From Corallococcus sp. bb12-1 (GTDB lineage Bacteria > Myxococcota > Myxococcia > Myxococcales > Myxococcaceae), in the NCBI RefSeq assembly GCF_026626765.1, contig NZ_JAPNJZ010000012.1, forward strand, positions 205,012 through 269,011: 64,000 nucleotides of DNA, given 5' to 3'. The notes beneath the pieces are model-generated. The model was not told where the DNA came from and did no database searches. It saw nothing but the letters and a program-made list of their open reading frames with translations. Positions 29,740 through 46,029 of this stretch are shown one piece after another. Both the position numbers and the translations under genes were made by a program. Numbering within the stretch: position 1 is the stretch's first letter; each line of letters starts with the position of its first letter.

Positions 29740-30471
29740 TCAAGACGAGGCGGGCTGCGGATCCGGACGTGTGGCGGGTGGGGTGGACGGCTCGCGCGAG
29801 GGGGGCGGCTCCGGCAGCAGGGCTCCAGTCGCGCGCTCCTTGAGCAGCTCGGAGAACTCGTCGCCCAGGAGGCGCAGCTCCACCAGCACGCGGGAGAGCC
29901 GGGCCTGGAAGTAGTTGTAGAAGACCATCGCCTGCACGGCGACGAGGATGCCCACGGCGGTGGCGACGAGCGCTTCGGAGATGCCCGTCATCACGGCCGC
30001 GGAGCCGCCGGTGCCGCCGGCCTCCACGTCCACGCCCAGGTCCTTGAAGGAGCGCATGATGCCGGCCACGGTGCCGAAGAGGCCCACGAAGGGCGTCGTC
30101 GAACCGATGGTGGCGAGCAGCCACAGGTTGCGCCTGAGCTTGAGGCCCACCTGGGCGCGCTCGCGCTCCACGGCGGACTCGATGCCATTGCCGCCACTGG
30201 CGCGGCTTCGCTCCCAGCGGTCGAAGCCCGCGAGGAAGATGTCGGCGGCCACCGCGTCGGAGCGCTCGGCGGCGGTGCGGGCCGCGGCCACGTCCCCGCG
30301 GAGCAGGTGCTTGTTGACGATTTCGCCCAGGCTGCGGGACCGCTCGCTCACGCCCCAGAGGGCAATGAGCCTTTCGACGGCCACGCCCAGGGCCACCACG
30401 GAGGCGCCCAGGAGGAGGGCGAGGGTGACGCCGCCCAGGCGAAGGTAATGAAGTAGATCGTTCAGGCTCAT
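29740..30471 (-). CDS. exbB: MotA/TolQ/ExbB-family proton-channel protein
   Basis: Three TM pattern and conserved …TIGSTTPFVGLFGTVAGIM… segment. Confidence 0.85.
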   Translation of the reverse strand: MSLNDLLHYLRLGGVTLALLLGASVVALGVAVERLIALWGVSERSRSLGEIVNKHLLRGDVAAARTAAERSDAVAADIFLAGFDRWERSRASGGNGIESAVERERAQVGLKLRRNLWLLATIGSTTPFVGLFGTVAGIMRSFKDLGVDVEAGGTGGSAAVMTGISEALVATAVGILVAVQAMVFYNYFQARLSRVLVELRLLGDEFSELLKERATGALLPEPPPSREPSTPPATRPDPQPASS

Positions 30472-30513
30472 GGTTGATGACCGGGCAGGGAGCCCTGGCT
30501 CACACTAGGACAT

Positions 30514-31341
30514 ATGAACCGCGCAGCCGCCGCAATCTTCCTGGCCCTCCTCTGTTCGGCCTGCCCCAAACGCCTCGAGTTCGGTCCGGAGGGCCGCATC
30601 GAGGACGCCCAGACGCTCTACCAGCATGTGCAGGAGCGGCAGGGTCGGGTGGTGACCCTGGAGGGCGACTCCAAGCTGCGCGTGGATTCCCCCCAGGGCA
30701 GTGGAACGCTCTCCACCTTCCTCTCCATCACCCGGCCGGGCCTCATCCACCTGGAGACGTACGACTTCTTCAACCGCCCGGTCGCCTCGCTCGTGTCCGA
30801 CGGGACACGTTTCGGCGTCTACCAGGCGCAGGGCAACACCTACTACCAGGGCCCCTCCAGCCCTGAGAACGTGTCCCGCTTCCTGCCCATCGTCCTGCCG
30901 AGCGAGGAACTGGTGGCCGTCATGCTGGGCCAGGTCCCCCTCCTGCCCCCGGAGTCCATGACCCTGGCGCTGGATGAGAAGGCGCGCGTGTACGTGCTCA
31001 CGCTGGTGCGGGGCGCGGCCACACAGACACTCCGCGTGGATCCCCGGCACCTGCGGGTGGTGAAAAGCGAGGTCCGGGGCGTGCCGGGCTACGACCTAGC
31101 GTTCGAGGACTTCAAGCAGCGCGGCGAGCTGCTCTTCCCCGGCAAGGTCATCCTCACGGCGTCCCAGGCGGACACGAAGCTGGAGCTGCGCTACACGGAG
31201 ATCACCCTCAACGGCCGGCCGGACCTGACGCTCTACGAGCTGACGGCCCCGGAGGGCGCGAAGGTGGTGGACGTGGACGAGCGGGGCCGGGAGCTGGGTG
31301 GGGGCGCGGTGTCGCCACCGCCCCCAGCGCCGGGTTCCTGA
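30514..31341 (+). CDS. Lipoprotein, LolA-like / DUF4292-type fold (outer-membrane lipoprotein-carrier-like)
   Basis: Lipobox LALLCSAC. β-rich sequence with LolA-like pattern. First gene of the long plus-strand block. Confidence 0.55.
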   Translation: MNRAAAAIFLALLCSACPKRLEFGPEGRIEDAQTLYQHVQERQGRVVTLEGDSKLRVDSPQGSGTLSTFLSITRPGLIHLETYDFFNRPVASLVSDGTRFGVYQAQGNTYYQGPSSPENVSRFLPIVLPSEELVAVMLGQVPLLPPESMTLALDEKARVYVLTLVRGAATQTLRVDPRHLRVVKSEVRGVPGYDLAFEDFKQRGELLFPGKVILTASQADTKLELRYTEITLNGRPDLTLYELTAPEGAKVVDVDERGRELGGGAVSPPPPAPGS

Positions 31342-31400
31342 GCTTCCAGGCGTCGAAAGGCAGCGTACCAGCCCAAGTCGGGTACACTGACGCGCACGAC

Positions 31401-32159
31401 ATGGCACAGATCAAGCTCGGAGAACTGCTGATCAAGGCGAACGTCCTGCAGGAGAGCCAGCTCAAGGCGGCGCTCGCCGAGCAGGCCAAGTGGGGCGGGA
31501 AGCTGGGCGAGATCCTCGTCCGGATGAACCTCGTCTCCGAGGACATCCTCGTGCGCGCCCTGTCGAAACAACTGGGCATGCCGGCGGTGAACCTGGACGC
31601 CGTGCAGATGGTTCCGCCGCACGTGAAGGCGAAGATTCCCTCGCAGACGGCGCGCGACTTCTCCGTCGTGCCGCTCCAACTGCGCGACGACGGCAAGACG
31701 TTGGTGGTGGCCATGTCGGACCCGCTCAACGTGCGGGTGCTCGACGAGCTCCGGGCCCTGTCCAAGTGCCGCATCGTGGCCAACGTGGCGGGCCGTACGT
31801 CGGTGGCGCGGGCGTTCGCGCGCCTCTACGAGGAGTCCGCGGAGCTGGAGGACGCGGACACGAACTTCAAGGTGGTGGACGCCCAGGGGCGTACCGTCGT
31901 GAAGAGCCTCAAGGACCTGGAGGCGGCCGGCGCCGCAGCCACCGCGCCCGCTCCGGCCCGTCCGGCGGCCCCCGCGGCCCGTCCGGCGCCCCCCGCGGAG
32001 GCGCCCCGTTCGGCGGCCTCCGGCAGTCCGGCGGAGCTGCTCAAGAGCGTGGAAGAGGTCCAGCGCAAGGAGGTCGCGGCGCTCAAGGCCATGGTGGAGC
32101 TGCTCATCGAGAAGGGCGTTTTTTCTCGCGAGGAATACCTCGCCAAGGTCAAGCGGTAG
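31401..32159 (+). CDS. Stand-alone MshEN (T2SSE_N / GspE N-terminal) domain protein; predicted c-di-GMP binding
   Basis: N-terminus KLGELLIKANVLQESQLKAALAEQ fits the MshEN motif RLGxxL(V/I)xxGx(I/V)xxxQLxxALxxQ. Second …DARDF..VPLQ…D..L.VAM.DPLN region. No ATPase domain. Confidence 0.75.
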   Translation: MAQIKLGELLIKANVLQESQLKAALAEQAKWGGKLGEILVRMNLVSEDILVRALSKQLGMPAVNLDAVQMVPPHVKAKIPSQTARDFSVVPLQLRDDGKTLVVAMSDPLNVRVLDELRALSKCRIVANVAGRTSVARAFARLYEESAELEDADTNFKVVDAQGRTVVKSLKDLEAAGAAATAPAPARPAAPAARPAPPAEAPRSAASGSPAELLKSVEEVQRKEVAALKAMVELLIEKGVFSREEYLAKVKR

Positions 32160-32168
32160 CCAGCGGCC

Positions 32169-33154
32169 ATGCGCAAGAAGATTGGTGAACTCCTCGTCCA
32201 GGCCGGAGTGGTCACGGACGAGCAGGTGAAGCAGGCCCTTGCCTCCGGGCGGCGCGGTCAGGGCCGCAAACTGGGGGAAGTGTTGGTGTCCATGGGCCTG
32301 TGCACCGGCCAGGACATCGCGCGCGCGCTGGCGGCGCAGCACGAGCTGCCCTTCGTGGAGATCCCCGAGTACATCCCCCATGGGGTGTCCTCGCTGGTGT
32401 CCATGGACTTCCAGTCCGAGCATCGCGTGCTGCTCTTCGCGCTGGAGCAGGACGGCCGCAGCGAGAAGCTCCACGTCGCGGTGGAGGACCCTGGCAACCT
32501 CATGTTGGTGGATGAACTGCGCTTCCAGTTGCGCAAGCCCCTGAAGGTGTTCGTCGCTTCCTCGGACGACATGGATCAGGCGCTGGCGCGCGGCCGGGGC
32601 GAACCGCTGGACATCGTGGAGGCTGAACCCATGGATGAGATGGACGACGCGGACGATTCGCCGGACATCCTGCCGTCCCCGCCGCCCGCGCCCGCACGGT
32701 CCTCCGCGCGTCCGCCCGCGCCGCCGCCGCTGGACTGGGACCTGCCGCCCCCACCGCCGTCCGACTCACGTCCCGACGGCGCGGACGTGCTGGAGGACCT
32801 GCTGAGCGCGAAGCCCCGCTCCGCGCCGCCCCCGCCGCCCAAGCCCGCCGCGTCGAGGCCGCCGCCTCCGCCGCCCCCGGAGGACTCCGACCCGAACAAG
32901 CCGCGCGTGCCGGTGGTCGTCTTCGGCGGCGCCGCGCAGGGCGTCCGGCCGTCGATGGCGCTCACGCCCACGCCGGACTTCTCCGAGGAGGACCTGGCGG
33001 TGCTGGACGACATCGAGCGCATCTCGCGCGGTGAAGAGGCCAGCCTGGACACGGAGAAGGTGAAGCCCGCGCGCATGGTCGCGAGCCTCATCCGCCTGCT
33101 CATCCGCAAGGGCCTCATCCAGGAGTCGGAGTTCCTGGAGGAGCTGGCCCAGAA

Positions 33155-33158
<4 letters not shown>
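32169..33158 (+). CDS. Stand-alone MshEN (GspE N-terminal) domain protein with long Pro-rich C-terminal region
   Basis: [26 protein letters not shown]…[24 protein letters not shown] (two motif copies). C-terminal helix …[23 protein letters not shown] resembles the C-terminus of the preceding protein. No ATPase domain. Confidence 0.75.
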
Positions 33159-34176
<1,018 letters not shown>

Positions 34177-34180
<4 letters not shown>

Positions 34181-35232
34181 GCGAACCGCTGGTCCAGGTG
34201 CGTGACCTGAAGGTGCACTTCCCGGTGCGCGGCGGCTTCTTCGGACGCGCGAAGGGCGCGGTGCGCGCGGTGGACGGCGTGTCCTTCGACGTCGCGCGCG
34301 GTGAGACGCTGGGCCTCGTGGGGGAGAGTGGTTGCGGCAAGAGCACGCTGGGCCGCGCGGTGCTGCGCCTGCTGGAGCCCACGGCCGGCTCCATCCGCGT
34401 GGACGGACGCGAACTCACCGGCCTGTCGCAGCGCCAGTTGCGGCCCCTGCGTCGGCGCATGCAGCTCGTCTTCCAGGATCCGTACGCCTCGCTCAACCCG
34501 CGCATGACGGTGGGGGACATCCTCGCGGAGCCCTTCGCCATCCACGGCCTCGCGAAGGGCAAGGCGCGCGAGGAGGAGGTGCTGGCGCTCCTGGACGCCA
34601 TGGGCCTGCCTCGCGAGGCCCGGCACCGCTACCCGCACGAGTTCTCCGGCGGGCAACGTCAACGCATCGGGATTGCACGTGCCATCGCGTTGCGTCCGGA
34701 CCTGGTGGTGGCGGACGAGCCCATCAGCGCGCTGGACGTCTCCATCCAGGCGCAGATCGTCAACCTGCTGGTGGACCTGCAGCGCGAGCGCGGGCTCACC
34801 TATGTCTTCATCGCGCACGACCTGAAGATCGTGGAGTACGTGTCCACGCGCGTGGCGGTGATGTACCTGGGCCGCATCGTGGAGGTGGCGCCGTCGCGCG
34901 TGCTGTACGCCGGGCCCCGGCATCCGTACACGCAGGCGCTCCTGTCCGCGGTGCCCGTGCCGGATCCGGAGCGTCCCCGCACGCGCCTGCTCCTGCCGGG
35001 CGAGCCGCCCTCGCCGCTGTCTCCCCCGTCCGGGTGCTCGTTCCACCCTCGCTGCCCCTACGTGATGGAGCGCTGCCGGCGTGAGTCGCCGCCGCTCTAC
35101 CCGCTGGGGGACGGCCACGCCGCCGCGTGCTTCCTGGCCGAAGGGGACGCGCAGCGCGCCGGGCCCGTTCCCCCTGTTTCCGCGTCCGACGGAGGTCCCG
35201 GTGTTCTGGCTCAGCCATCATCACGCGGATGA
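34177..35232 (+). CDS. ABC transporter ATP-binding protein, OppF/DppF type
   Basis: Walker [10 protein letters not shown]. Signature [12 protein letters not shown] overlap with the previous gene. Confidence 0.9.
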
Positions 35233-35608
35233 GTACAACCGCACGTACGTGCTGGGCGGAGTGCGCGTCTGCGCGCGCTGCCTGGGCACCTACCCGGTGC
35301 TCGCCGCTGTCTTCATGGGGCTGTTCGCGCTGAAGGCGCCCCTTGCGTGGACGTGGGACGTGCCGGTGGGAGTGGCGCTCACGCTGCCGGCGCTGGTGGA
35401 CTGGGCGGTGGGGCGCTTCCGTCCGGCCTCGGGCAGCAACGCGGTGCGCACGCTGACGGGGGTGTTGCTGGGGCTGGGACTTGCCCGCTCGCTGTACATC
35501 CACGTGCAGCGCCCCCTGCCGGCGGTGCTGCTGGCACAGGCACTCCTGGTGACAGGGGTGGCGGTCCCTGTCATTCTCGCCACTTACCGGCGTCCACGGC
35601 CGGAATAG
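35201..35608 (+). CDS. DUF2085-like small membrane protein
   Basis: [28 protein letters not shown] matches the conserved H…C.RC.G.Y core of DUF2085, followed by TM helices. GTG start at 35201 is preceded by GGAGG. Overlaps the 3' end of oppF in another frame. Confidence 0.5.
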
Positions 35609-35671
35609 ACCTTTCCCGCGTGCCTGTCCGTTACAGGCAATGGGCGGGAAGGGGATGGCACCCGTGGCTTC

Positions 35672-36319
35672 ATGGGCACAGGGGGAGTGTTGGCACCCGA
35701 AACCTCAGACGAGCGGCTGATGCTCGCCTTCCAGGCGGGAGACGCGCGCGCGTTCGAAGCGCTGATGCGAAAGCACCGCGCGCCGGTGTTCAACTTCATC
35801 CTGCGCTTCGTCGGGCAGCGGGCGCGGGCGGAGGACGTGCTGCAGGAGACGTGGCTCAAGGTGGTTCGCAGCGCACGGGAATACACGCCGAAGGCCCGGT
35901 TCACGACCTGGCTGTACACCATCGCGAGGAACCTCTGCGTGGACAGCACGCGCAAAGAGAGCTACCGCCAGACGACATCCTTGGAGGCCCCCGTCGGTGG
36001 CACGGACGGGGACGAGGGACGTCCGCTGGGCGAGGGGCTGCCGGACTCCGGTGCCAGTCCGGAGCGCGGGGCGCACAACGCGCGCCTGCGGCCCCTGCTG
36101 GAGCGGGCCCTCGCGGGCCTGCCGGAAGAGCAGCGCGAGGTGTTCGTGTTGCGCGAGTACAGCGGCATCCCGTTCAAGGAGATCGCCGAGGTGACGGGCG
36201 TGTCCGAGAACACGGTGAAGAGTCGGATGCGCTACGCGTTGGAGGGACTGCGCCGTCGTCTGGGAGAACTGGGCGTGGATGGTGACCTGTCGGAGGATGG
36301 AAGGACGGTGGCGGGATGA
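35672..36319 (+). CDS. ECF (group IV) sigma-70 factor
   Basis: Region 2 (…FNFILRFVGQRARAEDVLQETWLKVVRS…) and region 4 HTH (…EVFVLREYSGIPFKEIAEVTGVSENTVKSRMRYALEGLRR…). Confidence 0.85.
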   Translation: MGTGGVLAPETSDERLMLAFQAGDARAFEALMRKHRAPVFNFILRFVGQRARAEDVLQETWLKVVRSAREYTPKARFTTWLYTIARNLCVDSTRKESYRQTTSLEAPVGGTDGDEGRPLGEGLPDSGASPERGAHNARLRPLLERALAGLPEEQREVFVLREYSGIPFKEIAEVTGVSENTVKSRMRYALEGLRRRLGELGVDGDLSEDGRTVAG

Positions 36320-37761
36320 GTGCCCAGAATGCCCATGCGCACGAGGACCGGCTCCTCGACTTCGCCTACGGCGAGCTGCCTGCGTCGGAGGCCCAGTCGC
36401 TGGAGCAGCACGTCCAGGGCTGCGCGCGCTGCTCCAAGGCCCTGTCGGACATCCGCGGCGTGCGCTCCACGATGGCGCACCTGTCGGTCGAACCGCCGCC
36501 GGACGCCGGCCTGGAATCGCTCCTGGCGTACGCGCAGCAGTCCGCGCGCCGCGCCGCCGCGGGGCCCGAACCAAAGCCCTCGCGCTGGCGCCGCTGGCTG
36601 TTGCCCGTGGTGGGCCTGGCCTCGGTGAGCACCTTCGGCTTGCTGACGCTGGAGGTCAGCAAGGACGTCAACCTCCAGCCGACGCTGACCCAGAAGGCCG
36701 AACCGGCGGCAGCGAAGGCGGACCGGACCCGGTCCTATGACGACGCCCCGGCCCGGCCCGCGGCGCCCGCGGCCATGCAGGCCGCGCCGCCCCCCGCGCC
36801 CATGGAGGGCGCGCTGCTGGACCGTGCGCAGCGGATGCAGGCGGAAGCCACCGTGGGCACCAAGGGTGGGGGCGAAGGTCGGCCCTCGGACTGGATGAAC
36901 GCGGGCAGTGGTGGCGCGCTGCTGGAGCGGCGTCGCGGGGCGGAGTCGAAGAAGCAGATGTCCGGCTTCAGCAAGTCGAAGTCGGAAGCGGCGAGGGACG
37001 CGCTCTCGGCCCCGTCGGCGGTGATGGACGACGAGGCGAAGGACTCCGCGCTCGCGCAGGGCTCGCTCGTTGGGAGCCGCTCGGGCCTCGGTGTCAGCAA
37101 TGGTATCGGCAATGGGGGCGGTGGCAGCGACAAGCTCCGCAAGGAAGAGGAAGGCTCGCTGCGGCTGGGCGGCGCGTCCTATGGGCGGGGCCTCGCCAAG
37201 GACGACGACGAGCTCGCGGAAGAGGCCGCGCCACCGCCGCCTGCGGATTCAGTGGTCGCCGCCGCGCCCATGGCGCCTTCCACGCCGCCGATGCCCACGG
37301 GCTCCATGCCCACGGGCTCCGTCCAGCGCAATCAGCAGGCTCCTGGCAAGGCGATGGCCGCCGCCGAGCAGATGCCCGCCACTGTTTCCAAGCCGAAGTC
37401 CGCGCCCGCGGAGAAGGCGGCCCGCGCCGATGCGATGACGACCGCGCGCGATCTGTCGCGTCAGGCGCAGGAAGCCGCGAGCCAGGGCGACCGCGCTCGG
37501 GAGTCCCAGTTGCTGCGCGCCGCGCTCGCGGCCGGGGCCACCGGAAGTGAACGCCTGTCGCTGCTCTCCCGCCTGTGCGAATCGGAGTACGCCCAGGGCC
37601 GGAGGACCGAAGGCGCGGAGGTCTGCGCGCGCATCCTCTCCGAGGCACCCGATTCCGAAGCGGCCCAGCGGGCCGGGCTGTGGCTGGGGCAGGGCGGGGC
37701 GGCGACCGTCCCCGTCAAGAAGGCCCCGGCCCAGGCCGCCCCTCTGCCGTCCAAGCAGTAG
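36316..37761 (+). CDS. Anti-sigma factor (zinc-finger HxxxCxxC N-terminal domain, one TM, large Ala/Pro-rich periplasmic region)
   Basis: ATGA overlap with the ECF gene. LEQHVQGCARCSKAL motif. TM WRRWLLPVVGLASVSTFGLLTL. Confidence 0.75.
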   Translation: MSAQNAHAHEDRLLDFAYGELPASEAQSLEQHVQGCARCSKALSDIRGVRSTMAHLSVEPPPDAGLESLLAYAQQSARRAAAGPEPKPSRWRRWLLPVVGLASVSTFGLLTLEVSKDVNLQPTLTQKAEPAAAKADRTRSYDDAPARPAAPAAMQAAPPPAPMEGALLDRAQRMQAEATVGTKGGGEGRPSDWMNAGSGGALLERRRGAESKKQMSGFSKSKSEAARDALSAPSAVMDDEAKDSALAQGSLVGSRSGLGVSNGIGNGGGGSDKLRKEEEGSLRLGGASYGRGLAKDDDELAEEAAPPPPADSVVAAAPMAPSTPPMPTGSMPTGSVQRNQQAPGKAMAAAEQMPATVSKPKSAPAEKAARADAMTTARDLSRQAQEAASQGDRARESQLLRAALAAGATGSERLSLLSRLCESEYAQGRRTEGAEVCARILSEAPDSEAAQRAGLWLGQGGAATVPVKKAPAQAAPLPSKQ

Positions 37762-37811
37762 CAGCTCCGGGGGACGGCGACGTCCGTCCCCCAGGTGACG
37801 CTCCAGTCCAG

Positions 37812-38114
37812 ATGACCGATGCAGCGGGCCTCCGGAGCCTGGATACTGGGAGGATGACGCCGGTCGTGGATCATCCCCCCGTGAGCACCCCCCGGAAGAC
37901 AGCGTCGCGCTCCCTGCGCCGGGCCAGTCGGGGTCAGGCGATGGTCGAGTACTCGGCGCTCAACTGGGTGCTGCTCGTGGCGCTCGTCGTCGGTGCCACC
38001 GTGAAGATCCAGTGGTCCGATGACCGGCAGAGCAACGTCATCGACCTGTTCCTCGAGGCGTACGAGATCTATTACGACTCGTTCTACTTCGTGTTGAACC
38101 TGCCGTTCCCCTGA
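37812..38114 (+). CDS. Flp/Fap-family type IVb prepilin (Tad pilus subunit)
   Basis: …RRASRG/QAMVEYSALNWVLLVALVVGATV… matches the Flp processing motif G/XXXXEY followed by a hydrophobic helix. Mature length about 59 aa. Alternative start ATG 37854. Confidence 0.6.
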   Translation: MTDAAGLRSLDTGRMTPVVDHPPVSTPRKTASRSLRRASRGQAMVEYSALNWVLLVALVVGATVKIQWSDDRQSNVIDLFLEAYEIYYDSFYFVLNLPFP

Positions 38115-38223
38115 CGCAGGGAGCCACGCGGATCATCGGCGGTCGCGCGGCCCAACCCAACAGGCAGGGAGGCGCTGGGGCCTCCGGGTGTCCTGGGATT
38201 CCGTTCTATCGTGAGAGGTGGTT

Positions 38224-38253
38224 TTGACACCTGCTCTGGCGCATGGCTAACAT
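38224..38253 (+). promoter_or_regulatory. Candidate sigma-70-type promoter upstream of cpaB (TTGACA-N18-TAACAT)
   Basis: ttgaca at 38224-38229 and taacat at 38248-38253 within the 228-bp flp-cpaB intergenic gap. Confidence 0.35.
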
Positions 38254-38341
38254 CCCACCCGTTCGCGCCCTGGCACCGCCCCCTCGTCAAAGCTGTCTTG
38301 CCGCCACGACGGCGCCCCACCGTTCTGGAGGACCTTGAACC

Positions 38342-39157
38342 ATGTTGAAGGGTAAGACCCCGCTCGTCGTCGCGCTGGTGCTCGGTTTGCTCGCGGGCAT
38401 CGTGGCCTATTCGGCCATCAAGAAGAAGGAATCGGATGTGCGTCGCGGGTGGAATCTGGTGCCCGTGGTGGTCGCGGGCACGGACATGCCCGAAGGGACG
38501 GTCATCACGTACGAGATGATCTCCCAGCGCTCCGTGCCCGAGCAGTTCGTCACCTCGTCGGTGGTGAAGCCGGACTCGGCCAACTACATCGTGAACCAGA
38601 AGGTGTTGGTGGCGCTGCAGGCCGGCGACCCCATCCTCTGGAGCCAGTTCGAGACGACGAAGGCCGCCGAGCGCCTGTCGACGAAGGTGCAGAAGAAGGC
38701 GCGCGCCATCACCATCGAGGCGAAGCACACGACGTCGGTGGGCGGCTGGATCCGTCCCAACGACCACGTGGACATCATCGGCACGTTCCGCGATCCGCAG
38801 ACGGACGAGAGCGTCGCCGTGACGCTGCTGCAGAACATCATCGTGGTCGCCACGGGCAAGATCACCGGCACCACGAACATCAACCTCATCCCGGAGAGCC
38901 AGCGCGAGTACTCCAACGTGTCGCTGATGGTGCTGCCGGAAGAGGCGGAGATCCTGGTGCTGGCAGCGGAGCTGGGCAACCTGACCCTGTCCTTGCGCAA
39001 CGAGGACGACGTGGACCTCATCGAGGAGCGCGGTCGCGCCACCATCAGCACGCTGCTGTCCGGCGAGCGCACCCGGGTGCTGGAGCAGAAGCGCCGGGAG
39101 ATCATCCAGATCATCAAGGGCGGCACCGGCGAGAAGGCCTCGGCCGGCTCTCCGTAG
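38342..39157 (+). CDS. cpaB: Flp pilus assembly protein CpaB/RcpC (SAF-domain)
   Basis: N-terminal TM (LVVALVLGLLAGIVAY). SAF-like region. Characteristic …ITIEAKHTTSVGGWIRPNDHVDII… CpaB core. Confidence 0.85.
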   Translation: MLKGKTPLVVALVLGLLAGIVAYSAIKKKESDVRRGWNLVPVVVAGTDMPEGTVITYEMISQRSVPEQFVTSSVVKPDSANYIVNQKVLVALQAGDPILWSQFETTKAAERLSTKVQKKARAITIEAKHTTSVGGWIRPNDHVDIIGTFRDPQTDESVAVTLLQNIIVVATGKITGTTNINLIPESQREYSNVSLMVLPEEAEILVLAAELGNLTLSLRNEDDVDLIEERGRATISTLLSGERTRVLEQKRREIIQIIKGGTGEKASAGSP

Positions 39158-39229
39158 TGGCCCGCGGGGGCTGCTTCGTCTGAAGCAGCCCCGCCGGCTT
39201 CTCCCTCTTCCTCACGGGGATTCCCGCCC

Positions 39230-40075
39230 ATGCTCGCAGGTATCGTCCTCCTTCTCGTCACCGGCTCGGTGTTCTTCTTCAGCCTGGTGATCTTCAGCGT
39301 CCTGTCGAAGGCGTATGAGCAGTACCAGGAGCGCTACGTCGCCAAGTCGATGAACGACTTGAGCGACATGTTCCTCTTCATCGACGCGCGGCAGATGTTG
39401 ATCCTCAACATCGCCATGATGTGCCTCCTGGGCATCCTCAGCTACATCATCTTCAACCCCATCCTGGCGTTGATCGCGACCATCTTCGGCTTCTTCCTGC
39501 CGATGCTGATGGTGAAGCACTACCGCAAGCGCCGGATCAAGAAGTTCAACGTGCAGCTCGTGGACGCGCTGCAGGCCATGGCCAACGCGTTCAAGGCGGG
39601 CCTCACGTTCCCCCAGGCCATCGAGCACGTGGCGCGCGAAGCAATGCCGCCGCTGTCCCAGGAGTTCGGCCTGTTCGTGAAGGAAGTGAAGCTGGGCGTC
39701 CCCCTGGAAGAGGCCCTGGTGAACATGGGCCGCCGCGTGGGCAGTGACGACCTGGAGCTGGTGGTGGTGTCCACCAACATCGCGCGCCAACTGGGCGGCA
39801 ACATGGCGGAGATGTTCGAGACCATCTCCACGGTGATCCGCGAGCGCTTCCGCCTGGAGGGCAAGATCGACGCCCTCACGTCCCAGGGCAAGCTGCAGGG
39901 GTGGATCGTCGCGGCCATGCCGGCTGTCCTCGGCATGGTGCTCAACTACATGCGCCCGGACCTGATGGAGCCGATGTTGGATCACCTCTTCGGCTACATC
40001 CTGGTGACCATCATCGCCATCATGGAGATCATGGGCATCCTCATCATCCGGAAAATCGTCAACATCGACATTTGA
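39230..40075 (+). CDS. tadB: Tad pilus inner-membrane platform protein TadB (T2SS-F domain)
   Basis: N-terminal TM. T2SSF domain pattern (…LVDALQAMANAFKAGLTFPQAIEHVA…). C-terminal TMs. 281 aa. Confidence 0.85.
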   Translation: MLAGIVLLLVTGSVFFFSLVIFSVLSKAYEQYQERYVAKSMNDLSDMFLFIDARQMLILNIAMMCLLGILSYIIFNPILALIATIFGFFLPMLMVKHYRKRRIKKFNVQLVDALQAMANAFKAGLTFPQAIEHVAREAMPPLSQEFGLFVKEVKLGVPLEEALVNMGRRVGSDDLELVVVSTNIARQLGGNMAEMFETISTVIRERFRLEGKIDALTSQGKLQGWIVAAMPAVLGMVLNYMRPDLMEPMLDHLFGYILVTIIAIMEIMGILIIRKIVNIDI

Positions 40076-40088
40076 AACGAGGCGCACC

Positions 40089-40979
40089 GTGCAGGAGATT
40101 CTGACAGCCTTGTTGATCGGTGGCTCGACGCTGCTGACCGTGGGGGCCTTTACGTTCCTGGGCGTGGGCCTCTACACCAACGTCCTGGAGCACTTCCTCA
40201 CGGAGGTCCGCGACGAGTCCGCGGGCGGCATGAAGGGCGTGGGCTCCGTCGCCATCCGCAAGTTGGGGGCGATGAACCGGCGCTTCATGTGGCCGGGCTA
40301 CGAGTCCAAGACGCGCCGCAAGCTCATCAAGGCGGGCGAACCGTCGCAGTACAAGCCCGAGGACATCATGGCGCTGCAGGAAGTCAGCGCCTTCCTGGCC
40401 CTGCTGGCCGGCCTCTTCGTCATCAACGGCATCGGGATGAACCTGGCCTGGTCGCTGCTGGTGATGCTGTTGGGCCTGTTCTATCCGCTCATCTGGTTGA
40501 ACGATCAGGTGAAGCGCCGTCACCTGGCCATCAGCCGCGCGCTTCCGTACAACATCGACCTGCTGACGCTGTCGGTGGAAGCGGGCATGGACTTCACGGG
40601 CGCGCTGGCGAAGGTGGTGGAGAAGGGTCGCCAGGGGCCGCTGCGCGAGGAGCTGCAGCTGGTGCTCAAGCAGCTCAAGATGGGCAAGACGCGTGAAGAG
40701 GGCTTGAAGGGCATGATCGCGCGCGTGGACCTGCCGCCCCTGACGACGTTCGTCACGGCGCTGATCCAGGCGGACAAGATGGGCACCAGCCTGGGCAAGG
40801 TGCTGCGCATCCAGTCCACGCAGATGCGCATCGACCGGACGCAGCGCGCGGAGAAGCTGGCGGGTGAAGCGCCGGTGAAGATGCTCTTCCCGCTCATCGC
40901 CTGCATCTTCCCGACGGTGTTCATGGTGCTCTTCGGGCCCATCGTGTTCCAGTTCATGTACGGCAACGTCGGGGGCTAG
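40089..40979 (+). CDS. tadC: Tad pilus inner-membrane platform protein TadC (T2SS-F domain)
   Basis: T2SSF domain (…LPYNIDLLTLSVEAGMDFTGALAKVVE…). GTG start. 296 aa. Confidence 0.85.
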   Translation: MQEILTALLIGGSTLLTVGAFTFLGVGLYTNVLEHFLTEVRDESAGGMKGVGSVAIRKLGAMNRRFMWPGYESKTRRKLIKAGEPSQYKPEDIMALQEVSAFLALLAGLFVINGIGMNLAWSLLVMLLGLFYPLIWLNDQVKRRHLAISRALPYNIDLLTLSVEAGMDFTGALAKVVEKGRQGPLREELQLVLKQLKMGKTREEGLKGMIARVDLPPLTTFVTALIQADKMGTSLGKVLRIQSTQMRIDRTQRAEKLAGEAPVKMLFPLIACIFPTVFMVLFGPIVFQFMYGNVGG

Positions 40980-41052
40980 TCCTCTGCCGATCCTGCTCAC
41001 CATCACCCAGGGGCTCCAGGTTGGTAGGGAGCTCGCCTTCGAGCAGGCCGAG

Positions 41053-44000
41053 GTGAAGATCGGCCGGACCTCGGAGAACGACCTGGTGCTGCATGACCAC
41101 GGGGTCTCCCGGCGTCATGCCCGCATCACGGCGAGGGACGGGCAGTACTTCGCCGAGGACGTGGGCAGCGCCAACGGCACGCAGCTCAACGGCCAGCCGC
41201 TCGGCGGGCAGAAGCAGCTGCGCGACGGGGATCGCATCACCGTCGGGCCGGTGGAGTTCACCTTCGTCTGGATGCCGCAGGACGACGAGGCGGACGTCAC
41301 CCGGCCCATCCGCAGGGTGCTCGCGCCGGCGCATGCGCAGGTGTCGCCGCCGCAGGGCCTGGAGCAGGCCTCGCTCGCGGAGATCGAAGCCGCGCCCACG
41401 AGCTACCAGCAGTCGCTGCCGGTGATGGCGAGGCCGTCCTTCCTGCCGACCCCGCAGCGTTCCGGGGCCGCGGTGAAGAGCCTGGCGACGCCCGCGGCGC
41501 CGCTGGCGCCCCCTCCCACGAAGAAGCCGGAGGCCGTGGTGCCTCCGCCGAAACGGCCCTCCGCTCCCGACCTTCCGGCGGTGGGCGCGCCCGCGCAGGG
41601 CCGCGCTTCGGGGCCGCGCCTTCCCGCGCTGGGAGCGCCCACGTTGAACAGGGCCGCCCGTCCGGCAGGGGACGCCTCCTCGCAGGGCCGTGCATCCGGT
41701 CCGGGCCTCCCTGCTGGCGGAGCATCCACGTCAAACCGGGTCGCGCCTCCCCTAGAGGGAACTCCCGCGCAGGGCCGTGCATCCGGTCCGGGCCTCGCCG
41801 CTGTCGGAGCGTCCACGCCGAACCGGGCCGCGCCTGACGTGCAGGGGGCGCCCGCGCAGGGCCGCGCTTCGGGGCCGGGTCTCCCCGTCGCGGGTGGTTC
41901 CGCGAAGGGCGGACCTTCTGCCCCAGGCCAGTCCGCCGCTTCAGGCAAATTCTCGGCACCGGGCCCAGCCTCGCCTGACGCCTCCTCCGCACCGAAGCGG
42001 GTCGCCCCTCCGGGCCCGCCCGTGCTCGATGCCGCCGCGCCGAAGAAAGCCCCGCCGGGCCTGCCCTCGGTCGGCGCTCCCGCGCTGAACCGTCCCTCCC
42101 TGGGGCGCGGTGCCGCGCGAGGGGCCGAGGCGGCGAAACCTCCGTCGCTCCAAGCGGACGCCGCCGCCGCGCCGCCTCCGCCGGGCCCGCCCGCTCCGCA
42201 CAGGGATGCGCCGTCTGTCTCTCCCCCCGCGAGTGGAAGGCCGCCCGCGTCGCCTCCGGTGAACAGGGGCGCGGTGGCTTCGGTACCCTTGCTGCCCTCT
42301 GTTCCGGCGCTGACGCCTCCCGTGGCGCCCACGCCCGTGCGGGGTCCGTCAGCTCCAGCTCCCGGCCTTCCCGTACTGTCTCCTTCCGGGTTCGTGCCGC
42401 CTCCGGTGACCGCTCCTGTCGCTTCATGGGACGCGCCTCCGGCGGGCCTGTCCCCGGTGGATCCGGACGAGCCCGAGGAGCGCACGCTGATGGCGATTCC
42501 CGTGGTGCAGTCGCCTGGGCCTGTCCTGGCTGCTCCTCCGGTGGCGCCCCCCGCGTTGTCCTTCGTGGATCCGGACGAGCCCGAAGAGCACACGCTGATG
42601 GCGATCTCCACGGTGGACTCGCCGGAGCCCCTGCTTCCTGCGCCCCCGGTGGCGTTCCCCGCGCTCGCCTTCGTGGATCTGGAGGAGCCCGAGGAGCGCA
42701 CGTTGATGGCGATCTCCGCGGTGGACTCGCCTGAGCCCCGGACCCAAGCCGCACCGTCATTCGGCCCTCCGGAGGCAGCGGCCCTTCCGTCGGTGGCGGA
42801 GGAGGAGCCCGAGGAGCACACCGTCCTCGACCTGCGGCCCATCGTCCCCGTCAGTCCGCTGGTGCCGCGCCCGGTGTTGCATGGGGCGCCTCCACCGAAG
42901 GCGGCTGCCCCTGCCTTCTCCGCGGAACCGCCGACGTACGTGGGGCAGGACCAGGACATCCCTTCCGCCCCGCCGGACGACGCCTTGTCCGACGTGCAGA
43001 CCTTCATCGGCAAGGACGGACCTGGCGCGCCCCCTGTTCTGGCGCCTTCCCCGGCGCGAAGCGCTCCGGTCGCTCCGCCTCCGCCTTTTGATCCGGCCTT
43101 TGATCCGGTGACGTTCGTGGGCAAGGACCGGCCGGACGCGGCGGCGCCCCCCGCATCGCTGGCCGCTTCACCGCCGGCCGCGGAGGCCGGCCTGCTGGCC
43201 CTCCTCTCTTCGGACGAAGGCGACGCCACCCAGCCCCTCCCGCCGTCCGACCCGGACGCCTCCTCCTCCCAGCCGGCGCGCTCCGTGACGGTCGTCGCCA
43301 AGGTCGAACCCTCGACCGCCGCCGACAAGGCCCGGAAGCGGCGCCAGCTCGCCCGCACGCTGGGCGGCCAGTTCGTCCTCTTCTGGAATCGCCAGTCCCT
43401 GCTCCGCCGCGTCGGCTACGCGTCCCTCGCGGGTGTCGTCGTGCTGGCGGCGCTGTTCGGCGTGGTGACCGCCGTGACGTCCCAGTCGCTCCGGCTGCCG
43501 GGCCGGGAGCCCTTCAAGCTGGGCCTGGAGCCGGTGCCGGACTCGTTCGGCTTCGGCCAGGGCGTGCGCTGGTCCCACGTAGACGACAAGGTCTTCGACT
43601 TCCGCTTCGTCTCGCCCACGCGCGCGGTGGCGGTGCTGCACTACCAGGCCAGCAACATCTCCAAGGATGAGGTCAACCTGTCGCTCAACGGCGTGTCCCT
43701 GGGCTGGGTCCCGCCGGACACGGCCCAGACGCAGGAGCGCGAGCTGGAGCAGGTGATGCCCCCGGGCCTGCTGCGCCGCAACGAGAACAACCAGCTGCTC
43801 TTCGACAACGCCCTCAACCCGCCCGGTCAGGAGAGCTGGCGCATCTGGAACCTCCGGCTGGAGATCATCCCGGTGCCGGAGCTGCCGCCGGCTCAGCTGT
43901 TGGCGTCCGCTCGGGAAGCCGCGATGGCGGGTGCCCGGTTCTACGAACTCAAGGACGTGGGCGGGGAGAACCTCTTCAGGGCCTGGCAGCAGTACCGCGC

Positions 44001-44253
44001 CGCGTGGATCACCCTGGAAGCGCTGGATGAGAAGCCGGAGCTCTACGAGGACGTCCGGGAGCGGATCGCCCGGATTTCAACGGAGCTGGACCACCGGTGC
44101 GGTCAGCTGATGCTGGAATTCCAGCAGGCCGTCCAGTACCGGAGTCGGCGTCAGGCGGTCGCGGCCCTGGCGGAAGTGCGGAGACGCTTCCCTAGCACCG
44201 AGCATCGCTGCCACAATCTCGCGCTGGAAAAAGCCTATGAGCATGAACTCTAG
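41053..44253 (+). CDS. FHA-domain protein with long Pro/Ala-rich repetitive linker, one TM, and about 270 aa C-terminal (periplasmic) domain
   Basis: FHA core …IGRTSENDLVLHDHGVSRRHARI…GSANGTQLNGQPL…RDGDRITVGPVEF. TM LAGVVVLAALFGVVTAV near residue 800. FHA similarity continues in-frame upstream to about 40981 with no canonical start codon. Confidence 0.8.
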   Translation: MKIGRTSENDLVLHDHGVSRRHARITARDGQYFAEDVGSANGTQLNGQPLGGQKQLRDGDRITVGPVEFTFVWMPQDDEADVTRPIRRVLAPAHAQVSPPQGLEQASLAEIEAAPTSYQQSLPVMARPSFLPTPQRSGAAVKSLATPAAPLAPPPTKKPEAVVPPPKRPSAPDLPAVGAPAQGRASGPRLPALGAPTLNRAARPAGDASSQGRASGPGLPAGGASTSNRVAPPLEGTPAQGRASGPGLAAVGASTPNRAAPDVQGAPAQGRASGPGLPVAGGSAKGGPSAPGQSAASGKFSAPGPASPDASSAPKRVAPPGPPVLDAAAPKKAPPGLPSVGAPALNRPSLGRGAARGAEAAKPPSLQADAAAAPPPPGPPAPHRDAPSVSPPASGRPPASPPVNRGAVASVPLLPSVPALTPPVAPTPVRGPSAPAPGLPVLSPSGFVPPPVTAPVASWDAPPAGLSPVDPDEPEERTLMAIPVVQSPGPVLAAPPVAPPALSFVDPDEPEEHTLMAISTVDSPEPLLPAPPVAFPALAFVDLEEPEERTLMAISAVDSPEPRTQAAPSFGPPEAAALPSVAEEEPEEHTVLDLRPIVPVSPLVPRPVLHGAPPPKAAAPAFSAEPPTYVGQDQDIPSAPPDDALSDVQTFIGKDGPGAPPVLAPSPARSAPVAPPPPFDPAFDPVTFVGKDRPDAAAPPASLAASPPAAEAGLLALLSSDEGDATQPLPPSDPDASSSQPARSVTVVAKVEPSTAADKARKRRQLARTLGGQFVLFWNRQSLLRRVGYASLAGVVVLAALFGVVTAVTSQSLRLPGREPFKLGLEPVPDSFGFGQGVRWSHVDDKVFDFRFVSPTRAVAVLHYQASNISKDEVNLSLNGVSLGWVPPDTAQTQERELEQVMPPGLLRRNENNQLLFDNALNPPGQESWRIWNLRLEIIPVPELPPAQLLASAREAAMAGARFYELKDVGGENLFRAWQQYRAAWITLEALDEKPELYEDVRERIARISTELDHRCGQLMLEFQQAVQYRSRRQAVAALAEVRRRFPSTEHRCHNLALEKAYEHEL
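41575..41900. repeat. About 3.6 tandem copies of an 87-90 bp in-frame repeat (AQGRASGPGLPA…NRAA) in the FHA gene
   Basis: cagggccg(c/t)gc(t/a)tc(g/c)gg(g/t)ccg recurs at about 41593, 41683, 41770 and 41857. Confidence 0.7.
42445..42790. repeat. Three tandem copies (plus a partial fourth) of a roughly 108-111 bp in-frame repeat (DPDEPEERTLMAI.VVDSPEP…PPVA.PAL.FV)
   Basis: gatccggacgagcccga(g/a)gagc(g/a)cacgctgatggcgat recurs at about 42457, 42568 and 42676. Confidence 0.7.
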
Positions 44254-44280
44254 GGTTCGTGCCCCCCTCAGCAGGACGCG

Positions 44281-46029
44281 GTGAACACCATGTCGAACGG
44301 TCCTCCCCCAGCCCGCCGAAGGCCCACTTCGGGTACGCCCTCTTCCGGGACCGGACAACGCGCGCCGGTCCGTCGGTCGACCGCCGGTGTCTCCGCGGCG
44401 AAGCCCGCGAAGCTCGTGGTCATCGCGGGCCCCAGCGAGGGCGCGGAGTTCCCGCTCTCCGAGCTGGAGTACACGGTCGGCCGCGCCTCCGACAATCCCA
44501 TCTGCCTTCAGGACACGTCCGTCTCCCGCAAGCACATCACGCTGCGCAAGGAGTCCGCAGGCTGGTACGTCAGCGACATGAAGTCGGGCAACGGCACGCT
44601 CGTCAACGACGAGCCCGTCACCGACGAGACGCTGCTGGCCAACGGCGACGTCATCACGCTGGGCGACTCGGAGATGCGCTACGAGGACGTGGCCAACAGC
44701 ACCGCCAAGGTGCAGGCGCCGCCGTCGGGCCCCAGGCCCCGTCCGTCCACGGGCGGGAGCCGTTCCTCCCCGGCGGTGCCCGTGCGTCCCGGCCCCGGTC
44801 GCGCGCGCCCGCAGACGTCGCGCGCCTCCGCCGCCGCGGAGCAGACGCCGGAGATGCAGCGCAAGAAGCTGCGGATGAAGCTCGCGGGCGTGGGCGTGGT
44901 GGTGGTGCTCCTCGCCGGCCTGGGCGTCGCGCGCACCCGCATGCAGAAGCAGCAGGAGGAGCAGGTCCGCATCGAGCAGGAGCAGCTCGACTACCGCGCG
45001 CAACTGGGCGCCCTCTTCCAGGAGGCCAAGAACCTGGTGCGCGAGGGCCAGTGGCAGCAGGCCAAGGTGAAGTTGATGGAGCTCCAGGAGCAGGCGCCCG
45101 AGTACCCCGGCGTGGCCGACTACCTGAAGGCCGCGGAGAAGGAGATCCCCAACCAGGGACACCTGACGGCGGCCCAGTCGGCGATGACCAAGGGGGAGCT
45201 TGCCTCCGCGCAGGCGTCGCTCGCCAAGGTGGGCAGCGACACGCAGTTGTACGAGCAGCTGAAGACGGCCCGCAGGGCGCTGACCAACGCGGCCGACGCA
45301 CGCACGAAGGAGGCCAACACGCTGATGGCCACCCGTCAGCTGGAGTCGGTGCAGAAGGCCAAGGCCATCACCGACGACGTGCTGGTGACCTTCCCGGAGC
45401 ACCGCGACGGCAAGCTCATCAACGAGGAGGCCGCGCGCATCATCGCGGATCTGACGCGTCCGGAGCCCGTGCGGGTGGCGGCGGCGCCCAAGCCCTGGGA
45501 GCCCGCGGTGGACCGGTTCCGCGACGGTGACATGACCGGCGCGGTGGCCATCCTCAACACGTGCCTGGGCAAGACGCCCCAGTGCAAGCAGTACATGACG
45601 CAGATGACGGAGTTCGGGAACCTCTACAAGAAGCTGGAGGACCTGGACGCCAAGGGCCTGACGCGGCTGCTGGCGCTCGACAAGGACATCACCGACGGCC
45701 GGGGCAGCAAGATGGCGCGCAACGCGGGCACCCGCGCGGCGACGACCTTCTACAAGAGCGCCGCCGCCGCGAAGGCCTCCGCGCAGTACACGCGCGCGAT
45801 GGAGCTCGCCCGCCGCGCGCTCCAGGCGGACCCCAACCACACGGGCGCCGCCAACATCGTCAGCGACCTGCGGGCCAAGGCCAAGGACCTGTACATGCAG
45901 GCCTACTCCATCAAGGACTCCAGCCCGGACGAAGCGCTGCCCCAGTTCAAGGACGTCGTCTCCATGACGCCGCCGGACGACGAGCTGCACGGCAAGGCCC
46001 AGGGCTGGGTCGAGAAGCTGTCGCGATGA
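44281..46029 (+). CDS. FHA-domain membrane protein with C-terminal TPR-like/helical domain
   Basis: FHA (KLVVIAGPSEGAEFPLSELEYTVGRASDNPICLQDTSVSRKHITL…SGNGTLVNDEPV…). TM GVGVVVVLLAGLGVA. Stop overlaps the xseA start (ATGA). Confidence 0.8.
   Translation: MNTMSNGPPPARRRPTSGTPSSGTGQRAPVRRSTAGVSAAKPAKLVVIAGPSEGAEFPLSELEYTVGRASDNPICLQDTSVSRKHITLRKESAGWYVSDMKSGNGTLVNDEPVTDETLLANGDVITLGDSEMRYEDVANSTAKVQAPPSGPRPRPSTGGSRSSPAVPVRPGPGRARPQTSRASAAAEQTPEMQRKKLRMKLAGVGVVVVLLAGLGVARTRMQKQQEEQVRIEQEQLDYRAQLGALFQEAKNLVREGQWQQAKVKLMELQEQAPEYPGVADYLKAAEKEIPNQGHLTAAQSAMTKGELASAQASLAKVGSDTQLYEQLKTARRALTNAADARTKEANTLMATRQLESVQKAKAITDDVLVTFPEHRDGKLINEEAARIIADLTRPEPVRVAAAPKPWEPAVDRFRDGDMTGAVAILNTCLGKTPQCKQYMTQMTEFGNLYKKLEDLDAKGLTRLLALDKDITDGRGSKMARNAGTRAATTFYKSAAAAKASAQYTRAMELARRALQADPNHTGAANIVSDLRAKAKDLYMQAYSIKDSSPDEALPQFKDVVSMTPPDDELHGKAQGWVEKLSR

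Follow-up and report, generated by a model that had tools for sequence, protein, structure and literature searches.

A conserved ECF sigma/anti-sigma factor pair beside kil cluster 2 in Corallococcus and related myxobacteria

Introduction

Within a 64,000-nt stretch of the genome of Corallococcus sp. bb12-1 (contig NZ_JAPNJZ010000012.1; hereafter the window, on which all coordinates are based unless another locus is named), the gene of a sigma factor of the extracytoplasmic function (ECF) class overlaps that of a single-pass membrane anti-sigma factor of the zinc-binding anti-sigma (ZAS) type, and the two directly precede kilK, kilB, kilG, kilH and two FHA genes, which can be assigned by orthology to kil cluster 2 of the Tad-like contact-killing machine. 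We consider it fairly likely that this pair is an autoregulated ECF module that is genetically coupled to Kil, has at most an indirect effect on the kil genes and finds its main targets elsewhere. The pair itself is an ordinary ECF/ZAS module; what is new here is that the two are recognized as a sigma/anti-sigma pair, that their linkage to kil runs deep, that a promoter motif can be predicted for the sigma family and that the promoters of the locus have been mapped out from sequence; this map argues against a simple direct control of kil.

Kil is the contact-killing pilus machine of Myxococcus xanthus, and its kil cluster 2 was described by Seef et al. (2021; PMC8460266). KilK is now seen as an adapter pilin, and KilP as the major pilin (Herrou et al., 2025; PMC12075869). 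Seef et al. (2021; PMC8460266) end the cluster at MXAN_4661, the M. xanthus ortholog of the anti-sigma gene, which they enter only as "putative zinc-finger, unknown function", and the sigma factor goes unmentioned in the Kil papers (PMC8460266; PMC12075869). A full-text search of the literature found no paper that treats MXAN_4662/4661 as a sigma/anti-sigma pair, one operon-prediction preprint mentioning the genes, and no paper that ties an ECF sigma factor to Kil.

The sigma factor and its membrane partner

The sigma protein, of 209-215 aa, consists of regions 2 and 4 only. Pfam assigns Sigma70_r2 to residues 31-97 (E 3.7e-18) and Sigma70_r4_2 to residues 143-190 (E 6.6e-17), with no match to r1 or r3, an architecture that places it among the ECF (group 4) sigma factors, and the NCBIfam models TIGR02937 (sigma70-ECF; 112 bits, cutoff 42.9) and PRK12513 (268 bits, cutoff 206) are both exceeded. 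Its identity to the M. xanthus ortholog is 85% and to that of C. interemptor 94%, and its closest solved structures are SigL, SigE, SigW and RpoE (E 1e-20 to 1e-16). The true start is probably GTG 35687 or TTG 35690 rather than ATG 35672, since in an alignment of 11 loci the former are conserved behind a GGGGGAG ribosome-binding site, and the latter occurs only in Corallococcus. At its other end the gene shares the 4 nt ATGA (36316-36319) with the anti-sigma gene, and the annotations of M. xanthus, Stigmatella, C. coralloides and Pyxidicoccus show the same overlap, five genomes in all, an arrangement by which the two genes are predicted to be translationally coupled.

The partner protein has a cytoplasmic N-terminus (residues 1-97) that is nearly invariant in 32 orthologs, with the anti-sigma domain spanning residues 1-90. 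It matches Pfam zf-HC2 with 26.4 bits (cutoff 22.2), and the NCBIfam anti-sigma models remain below their cutoffs (39 vs 100); the motif H32-x3-C36-x2-C39, which is that of ZAS-type (class I) anti-sigma factors, is invariant across the aligned orthologs, and both zinc binding and sigma binding are predicted. A single hydrophobic transmembrane segment follows at approximately residues 92-115, with RWRRW just before it. The periplasmic part begins with a long, Ala/Pro-rich and fast-evolving linker carrying the islands DW-NAGSGG and SLRLGG and a poly-Pro stretch, and it ends with a conserved block (approximately residues 378-460) in which C421 and C437 are invariant. AlphaFold2 modeled the last 109 residues (373-481) as five helices with a mean pLDDT of 82.8, and a Foldseek search with this model returned only tetratricopeptide repeat (TPR) domains (best E 5.6e-3, a likeness at the fold level only), among them the peptide-binding domain of collagen prolyl hydroxylase, YbgF, BamD and LpoP. 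The periplasmic end is thus modeled as a five-helix TPR-like domain, and a protein or peptide ligand would be the most natural guess for the signal. It was also observed that the whole protein is approximately 53% identical to its C. interemptor ortholog, as against 94% for the sigma factor and 97% for KilB, and that almost all of this divergence lies in the linker, the cytoplasmic and TPR-like domains being conserved.

An earlier note on this DNA had proposed an ECF sigma factor, a zinc-finger, single-pass anti-sigma factor, co-translation of the two through the ATGA overlap and a position directly next to flp-cpaB-tadBC, and all four proposals agree with the domain matches, the invariant residues, the overlap in relatives and the gene order given here, the flp-cpaB-tadBC genes being kilK-kilB-kilG-kilH. 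It had furthermore called the periplasmic domain low-complexity, which is correct for the variable linker and has to be corrected for its conserved helical end.

Conserved linkage to the kil genes

To place the pair among its relatives, a scan for homologs of the sigma factor, limited to one genome per species, gave 80 loci, to which protein look-ups added four (84 loci in total). Thirteen of these are of the kil type, from M. xanthus, Stigmatella, Pyxidicoccus, Hyalangium, three Corallococcus genomes (the window included) and six metagenome-assembled genomes. In every one of these Myxococcus/Archangium-type loci with enough flanking sequence (13/13), the pair directly precedes the kil genes, at sigma identities of 54-94%, and KilK, KilB, KilG, KilH and the two FHA proteins are found by tblastn with 70-97% identity and in the same order. 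The genes of the window from kilB to the second FHA gene are orthologous to MXAN_4652-4648 (tblastn against the table of Seef et al.), and M. xanthus kil cluster 2 (MXAN_4648-4661) together with MXAN_4662 presents orthologous genes in the same order (PMC8460266; PMC12075869), KilB being 90% and KilK 70% identical between the two.

The intervening DNA has been rearranged. Myxococcus, Pyxidicoccus, Stigmatella and Hyalangium have approximately 8 kb between kilB and the anti-sigma gene, which hold kilM4, kilN4, kilL4, MXAN_4657, 4656, kilK, MXAN_4654 and 4653, Stigmatella having one gene of unknown function after kilK instead of two. Unlike M. xanthus with this Tip4 block of approximately 8 kb before kilB, Corallococcus has kilK alone: in all three genomes (the window, C. 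interemptor and C. coralloides) the Tip4 minor pilin genes kilL4/kilM4/kilN4 are absent between the anti-sigma gene and kilB, and kilK, the only part of the block that was kept, stands right behind the promoter-like element P2 described below. An Archangium genome (L004) carries the entire pilin block of this interval in inverted orientation, and two further loci (L009 and L012) have neither the pilin block nor kilK. The region concerned is 37762-38341 in the window, 5059-12752 in L001, 12005-18772 in L002, 12040-18767 (minus strand) in L004 and 7450-8003 in L084. Losses are seen on the upstream side as well, since L012 is without the ABC and DUF2085 genes and L011 without the ABC genes, and both keep the pair beside kilB-kilG-kilH. 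The link between the pair and kilB-kilG-kilH has therefore survived rearrangement on both of its flanks, which is our main argument for a functional connection. Taken together, the sigma family is found across Myxococcota, and judging from gene order the pair is fixed between the MshEN-ABC-DUF2085 operon and kil cluster 2 in the Myxococcus/Archangium lineage.

Promoters of the sigma gene

Two promoter elements can be placed upstream of the sigma gene (Table 1). The first, P0, is of the sigma-70 type and lies at the 3' end of the DUF2085 gene, within its last 20 codons. These codons are identical in eight loci, with the rare A/T-ending codons ACA, CCT, ATT and ACT retained, and the third-position A/T fraction is 0.41-0.50 over P0, compared to 0.05-0.30 in the remaining part of the gene. 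In L004, where an insertion of approximately 600 bp has intervened, P0 persists as a non-coding copy beside the sigma gene (9830-9900), and DUF2085 has a different C-terminus with normally biased codons. Moreover, published Cappable-seq of M. xanthus (PMC8844925 supplement) has mapped a transcription start at 5847043, that is, at -66 of MXAN_4662, at 0, 6, 12, 18 and 24 h, its scores ranging from 150 to 367. By our mapping, this start is the A of CACTTACC, 8-9 nt past CATTCT, and it falls into the same alignment column as the start assigned to P0 in the window. Given the codon conservation, the relic in L004 and the M. xanthus start from 0 to 24 h, P0 is a real and constitutively used promoter of the sigma gene.

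The second, P1, is a candidate ECF promoter between P0 and the sigma gene. Among the 73 loci whose sigma identity is below 62%, an unbiased count of dyads found GATC...GCGT in 20 and AGAT...GCGT in 16, compared to 0.9 and 0.2 in shuffled sequences. The motif AGA[TC]C-N16/17-CGT is present on the strand of the sigma gene and at most 250 nt from its start in 42 of the 84 loci, whereas dinucleotide shuffles have it in 1.4 on average and in 6 at most, and control windows in 3/81 and 1/73. A weight matrix trained only on the distant loci of the family gives P1 in the window 9.3 bits, which puts it in 11th place among 255,856 window positions. Across the remaining kil-context loci P1 reaches 9.3-23 bits (9.3 in C. 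interemptor) and is the top intergenic site in each; furthermore, among window matches of at least 8 bits, P1 alone lies within 100 nt upstream of a gene on the same strand. Since the dyad travels with the sigma gene across lineages of differing gene context, it can be regarded as the signature of autoregulation, and P1 is probably the autoregulatory ECF promoter. The GGAAC type of ECF promoter was considered and set aside, GAAC-N16-18-CGTT having two matches in the window against three expected, none of them near the locus.

The top match of the matrix in the window is located elsewhere, at 36176-36209 (14.3 bits; AGATC-N16-CGTG), inside the sigma gene and 140 nt before the start of the anti-sigma gene, and it is seen again in L010, L004 and L008. 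Because it sits on the codons of the conserved EIAEVTGVS helix, this match probably comes about through the coding sequence; the alternative would be an internal promoter of the anti-sigma gene.

Promoters of the kil genes and the KilK leader

Upstream of kilK, or of kilM4 in other genera, we have identified a promoter-like element, P2, composed of ATGACCGATGC and a -10-like hexamer. Its 10-mer TGACCGATGC is found exactly at the equivalent site in nine loci and only once in the window; the Myxococcaceae/Archangiaceae loci examined all carry it exactly, with the exception of Pyxidicoccus (L085). In six loci, a GATAAT-like hexamer follows 24-25 nt after TGACCGATGC and stands 6-7 nt before the ATG, which is not preceded by a Shine-Dalgarno sequence, a layout that suggests a leaderless pilin mRNA. 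A distance of 24-25 nt is too long for the usual -35/-10 pair, so TGACCGATGC may bind a further regulator. P2 moves along with the inverted pilin block of L004 and is therefore assigned to the pilin genes rather than to the anti-sigma gene. It was also considered as an ECF promoter, on the ground of the GACC that it shares with P1, but rejected since the CGT at the right spacing is missing in most loci.

P2 also bears on the N-terminus of KilK. The protein is cleaved in prediction at G/QAMVEY (glycine codon at 37932), in agreement with the prepilin pattern of G/XXXXEY and a hydrophobic helix behind it. Its surroundings, RG/QAMVEYSALNWVLLVALVVG, introduce a mature part of 59 aa whose length is invariant across Myxococcaceae, and RG/QAMVEYSALNWVLLVALVVGATVKIQWSDDRQSNVIDLFLEAYEIYYDSFYFVLNLPFP matches KilK of M. 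xanthus and Stigmatella nearly residue for residue. Identity by tblastn is 70-77% among relatives, and the Pfam Flp model gives no match to KilK. In the 11-locus comparison, Myxococcus, Pyxidicoccus, Stigmatella, Hyalangium and Archangium have leaders of 15-17 aa, and the more distant loci L008 and L011 have leaders of 10-12 aa. For the three Corallococcus genomes the possible starts allow 15-27 aa, with 18-27 aa being plausible, and the ATG of the 27-aa option in the window is located exactly 6 nt past the hexamer GATACT of P2. A leader of 41 aa is unlikely, as its ATG lies within ATGACCGATGC (ATGACC here, TTGACC in other genera), which is a conserved cis element. The leader had previously been described as unusually long and basic, a property that depends on the start codon chosen, and it appears ordinary once the 41-aa option is excluded.

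The genes kilB-kilG-kilH are preceded by P3, the sole match of the sigma-70 type between 35000 and 38500. It agrees with the consensus at 10 of 12 positions, and shuffled sequences lead one to expect 0.1 such matches. Its core, GTTTTGACACC-N-TAACATC, is conserved in nine loci of several genera. In the scan with the distant-locus matrix, the best sites in the gaps anti-sigma-kilK, kilK-kilB, kilB-kilG, kilH-FHA and FHA-FHA all scored below zero, and no related locus showed a conserved second site of the P1 type. Hence kilK/kilM4 and kilB each possess, by prediction, their own separate and conserved non-ECF promoter. As for the transcript ends, no intrinsic terminator was found in 35000-38500; a G+C-rich hairpin after the anti-sigma stop codon (37769-37792) was dismissed as a conserved terminator, being absent in C. 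interemptor and having a z of only -0.6 against shuffled sequences.

These observations bear directly on the proposal, made in the earlier note, that the pair is a dedicated regulator of the pilus/kil genes. In its explicit form, the sigma factor would directly activate the promoters of kilK/kilM4 and kilB upon contact with prey sensed by the anti-sigma factor, and its regulon would perhaps extend to kil cluster 1, kilP and the tip pilin clusters. The conserved adjacency part of the proposal holds: all 13 loci keep it down to 54% sigma identity, even where upstream genes have been lost (L011, L012). Moreover, a 2026 preprint predicts a single operon that starts with the sigma gene (MXAN_RS22635) and takes in the kil genes, M. 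xanthus offers a precedent in DdvS/DdvA, which controls a neighboring gene island, and the TPR-like periplasmic domain would be suited to protein binding. However, the kil genes have promoters of their own that are unlike the family motif, P3 being near-consensus sigma-70, the kil intergenic regions contain no P1-type site, and the sigma family occurs without kil neighbors in other Myxococcota, for which reasons we hold direct control of this kind to be improbable. Of the ECF-type -35/-10 element that the same note had suggested looking for, the part upstream of the sigma gene is borne out by P1, and the part before flp/kilK, together with the rest of cluster 2, is not; the sigma-70-like promoter it had named as the alternative is P3, conserved as given above.

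Comparison with known ECF systems

DdvS/DdvA of M. xanthus is likewise composed of an ECF sigma factor and a single-pass zinc-finger anti-sigma factor and stands beside a large gene cluster, the CRISPR-Cas/CBASS island (PMC6061681; PMC11506125). The N-terminus of our anti-sigma factor matches DdvA weakly (E 0.025), and both pairs have an autoregulatory promoter of the AAc...cGT type, which is a predicted one in the present case. The two differ in that promoters of DdvS (GTAA-N16-CGT) precede three further operons of the island, whereas the family motif is here found only before the sigma gene, and in that their periplasmic parts are unrelated, DdvA having approximately 900 residues and the present protein a linker and a TPR-like domain of 85 residues.

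The pattern of a membrane anti-sigma factor and autoregulation, known from SigL/RslA, SigE, SigW/RsiW and RpoE/RseA, fits this pair with its predicted autoregulation. Its anti-sigma N-terminus gives a weak match (E 0.12) to chain 3hug_B, which we take to be RslA of M. tuberculosis. In contrast to the envelope-stress pairs, no RseB- or RseC-like partners are present here, and the -35 element is AGA(C/T)C instead of GGAAC. Another comparison is offered by the HrpL-type ECF sigma factors (group ECF32), which are linked to type III secretion genes (PMC7826278). In both cases there is genomic linkage between an ECF sigma gene and a large secretion or pilus machine that spans the envelope. HrpL is not known to have an anti-sigma factor and has its promoter box before each target operon, unlike the pair described here, which includes an anti-sigma gene and has no motif before the kil operons.

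Function of the pair

The reading that we favor, an autoregulated module coupled genetically to Kil, can be put as the following scenario. P0 and the upstream operon would supply the pair constitutively, and the anti-sigma factor would hold the sigma factor at the membrane until the TPR-like domain reads a protein or peptide signal in the periplasm and the sigma factor is freed. The freed sigma factor would then amplify its own operon from P1. In the compact layout of Corallococcus, transcription from P1 might run into kilK and possibly kilB-kilG-kilH, as there is no terminator-like site behind the anti-sigma gene and the hairpin there is not conserved. Such read-through is impossible in L004, where the pilin block is inverted, and it would thus not be a conserved logic; the main targets of the sigma factor would lie outside the window. 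Because the P1 motif is absent before kilK, kilB, kilG and the FHA genes, these genes have conserved promoters of their own and homologs of the sigma factor occur without kil, any effect of the pair on kil is probably indirect, by read-through, or absent. The pair may tune the Kil machine, and would not be the primary driver of kil transcription.

Several observations weigh against this reading. No transcription start has been reported at P1 in M. xanthus, either in growth or in starvation (PMC8844925 supplement); this is expected if the sigma factor is sequestered, and P1 is nonetheless unproven. The spacer of P1 and its downstream flank (35609-35654) form a hairpin in 7 of 10 loci, with z from -2.2 to -3.5, so that part of the conservation of P1 could reflect RNA structure. 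The hairpin of the window (-28.4 kcal/mol, z -3.5) takes in the spacer and 20 nt past CGTT, with CGTT near the loop, and it could be an element of the 5' untranslated region of the P0 transcript or a terminator of the upstream operon; RNAalifold, applied to 11 loci, found no consensus RNA structure over P1. Furthermore, between mutM and the sigma gene, 12-14 loci of Kofleriaceae/Haliangiales carry the dyad on the opposite strand, in the form TAGACC-N16/17-CGTTGGAC (L013-L028 and L040; e.g., L015 9920-9950, minus strand), where it overlaps the palindrome AGACCGC-TTAC-GCGGTCT. With regard to the transcript, "Operon 24" of Kuzmich et al. (PMC8844925) comprises MXAN_4667-4661 and ends at the anti-sigma gene, and in an RNA-seq supplement on predation MXAN_4658-4660 are mildly induced, 4661/4662 not being found in the part of it that was searched. 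As for how exclusive the linkage to kil is, KilB, KilG, KilH and KilK were not found within 10 kb in 71 loci with sigma identities of 45-60%. These belong to Kofleriaceae, Haliangiales, Polyangiaceae, Nannocystaceae, Sandaracinaceae, Bradymonadaceae and Anaeromyxobacter and have their own conserved neighborhoods, such as sigma-anti-sigma-rlmH-iPGM in an Anaeromyxobacter locus, or TPR-DUF4292-ABC-ABC-sigma-anti-sigma followed by housekeeping genes in L062, with kil absent nearby.

Some of these points lead to a different explanation, in which the pair serves the MshEN-ABC-DUF2085 operon or a general envelope stress response, and its position beside kil is merely inherited gene order. It would account for the operon of overlapping genes predicted by Kuzmich et al., for the distant L062, which keeps DUF4292-ABC-ABC together with the pair and has no kil genes nearby, and for the phylum-wide occurrence of sigma homologs of 46-60% identity; general stress sigma factors being the closest solved structures, and the sigma gene having a constitutive start, would suit it as well. 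On the other hand, L012 and L011 have lost upstream genes and their pair is still beside kilB-kilG-kilH, the adjacency has outlived insertion, deletion and inversion of the 8-kb pilin block, and the sigma gene has, in P0 and P1, its own promoters independent of the upstream operon. We regard this explanation as doubtful and prefer the autoregulated, Kil-coupled module.

A bolder extension of the coupled module can be imagined, in which the pair is the transcriptional arm of prey sensing by Kil. The TPR-like domain would read the state of the pilus or secretin, or a prey peptide, read-through from P1 would raise cluster 2, and genes for predation at unlinked sites (kil cluster 1, kilP, tip clusters, toxins) carrying AGA(C/T)C-N16/17-CGT would be switched on. 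We would give this only a small chance of being right.

Neighboring genes

The window has a G+C content of approximately 70%, and the genes discussed here form a single run on the plus strand (30514-46029), delimited by third-position G+C (Table 1); after the FHA pair follow the housekeeping genes xseA, a response regulator and dxs. Upstream of the sigma gene, a stand-alone tandem of two MshEN proteins, of the cyclic di-GMP-binding type, two ABC ATPases without permease or binding protein and DUF2085 make up a tightly overlapping operon. The MshEN-ABC-DUF2085 gene order is shared with M. xanthus, Stigmatella, C. coralloides and Pyxidicoccus, and the block recurs beside kil cluster 2 across the lineage, the MshEN genes being kept even in L012; it may be part of the Kil system. 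Between kilB and kilG (39167-39192) there is a perfect 11-bp G+C-rich hairpin with a 4-nt loop, which has strong equivalents in the other two Corallococcus genomes and none in other genera. No Rfam family matched in 30000-47000, and no model of anti-phage defense matched the sigma factor, the anti-sigma factor or DUF2085.

Table 1. Genes and promoter elements around the sigma/anti-sigma pair in the window.
Feature	Position	Strand	Sequence elements or basis of assignment
DUF4292	30514-31341	+	Pfam/NCBIfam
MshEN-domain proteins (two)	31401-32159, 32169-33158	+	Pfam
OppD/F-like ATP-binding cassette (ABC) ATPases (two)	33155-34180, 34177-35232	+	Pfam
DUF2085 membrane protein	~35201-35608	+	Pfam
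P0, sigma-70-type promoter of the sigma gene	35549-35586	+	GTGACA (35549-54), 17 nt, TGT-CATTCT (CATTCT 35572-77), inferred start A 35586
P1, candidate ECF promoter	35606-35632	+	TAGACC (35606-11), 17 nt, CGTT (35629-32); predicted start ~35639-35641
ECF sigma factor, MXAN_4662 ortholog	35672-36319	+	Pfam, NCBIfam, identity to relatives
zf-HC2 single-pass anti-sigma factor, MXAN_4661 ortholog	36316-37761	+	Pfam zf-HC2, ortholog alignment
P2, promoter-like element of kilK (kilM4 in other genera)	37812-37856	+	ATGACCGATGC (37812-22), GATACT (37842-47)
kilK, Flp-type adapter pilin, MXAN_4655 ortholog	37854-38114	+	tblastn, translated relatives
P3, sigma-70-type promoter of kilB-kilG-kilH	38224-38253	+	TTGACA, 18 nt, TAACAT
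kilB (CpaB)	38342-39157	+	TIGR03177, 190 bits; tblastn
kilG (T2SSF)	39230-40075	+	Pfam/NCBIfam; tblastn
kilH (T2SSF)	40089-40979	+	Pfam/NCBIfam; tblastn
FHA proteins (two), MXAN_4649/4648 orthologs	41053-44253, 44281-46029	+	Pfam/NCBIfam; tblastn

Implications

The Kil papers detail the parts of the machine and its contact-triggered assembly, and a transcriptional regulator is not discussed in them. The protein at the edge of cluster 2, so far labeled a zinc-finger protein with no function assigned, is the anti-sigma partner of a highly conserved ECF sigma factor that has itself gone unstudied. The pair is thereby a testable lead for the regulation of Kil rather than a demonstrated Kil regulator, and should its role in Kil turn out negative, it would be a general envelope-stress sigma factor of myxobacteria, which would also be worth knowing.

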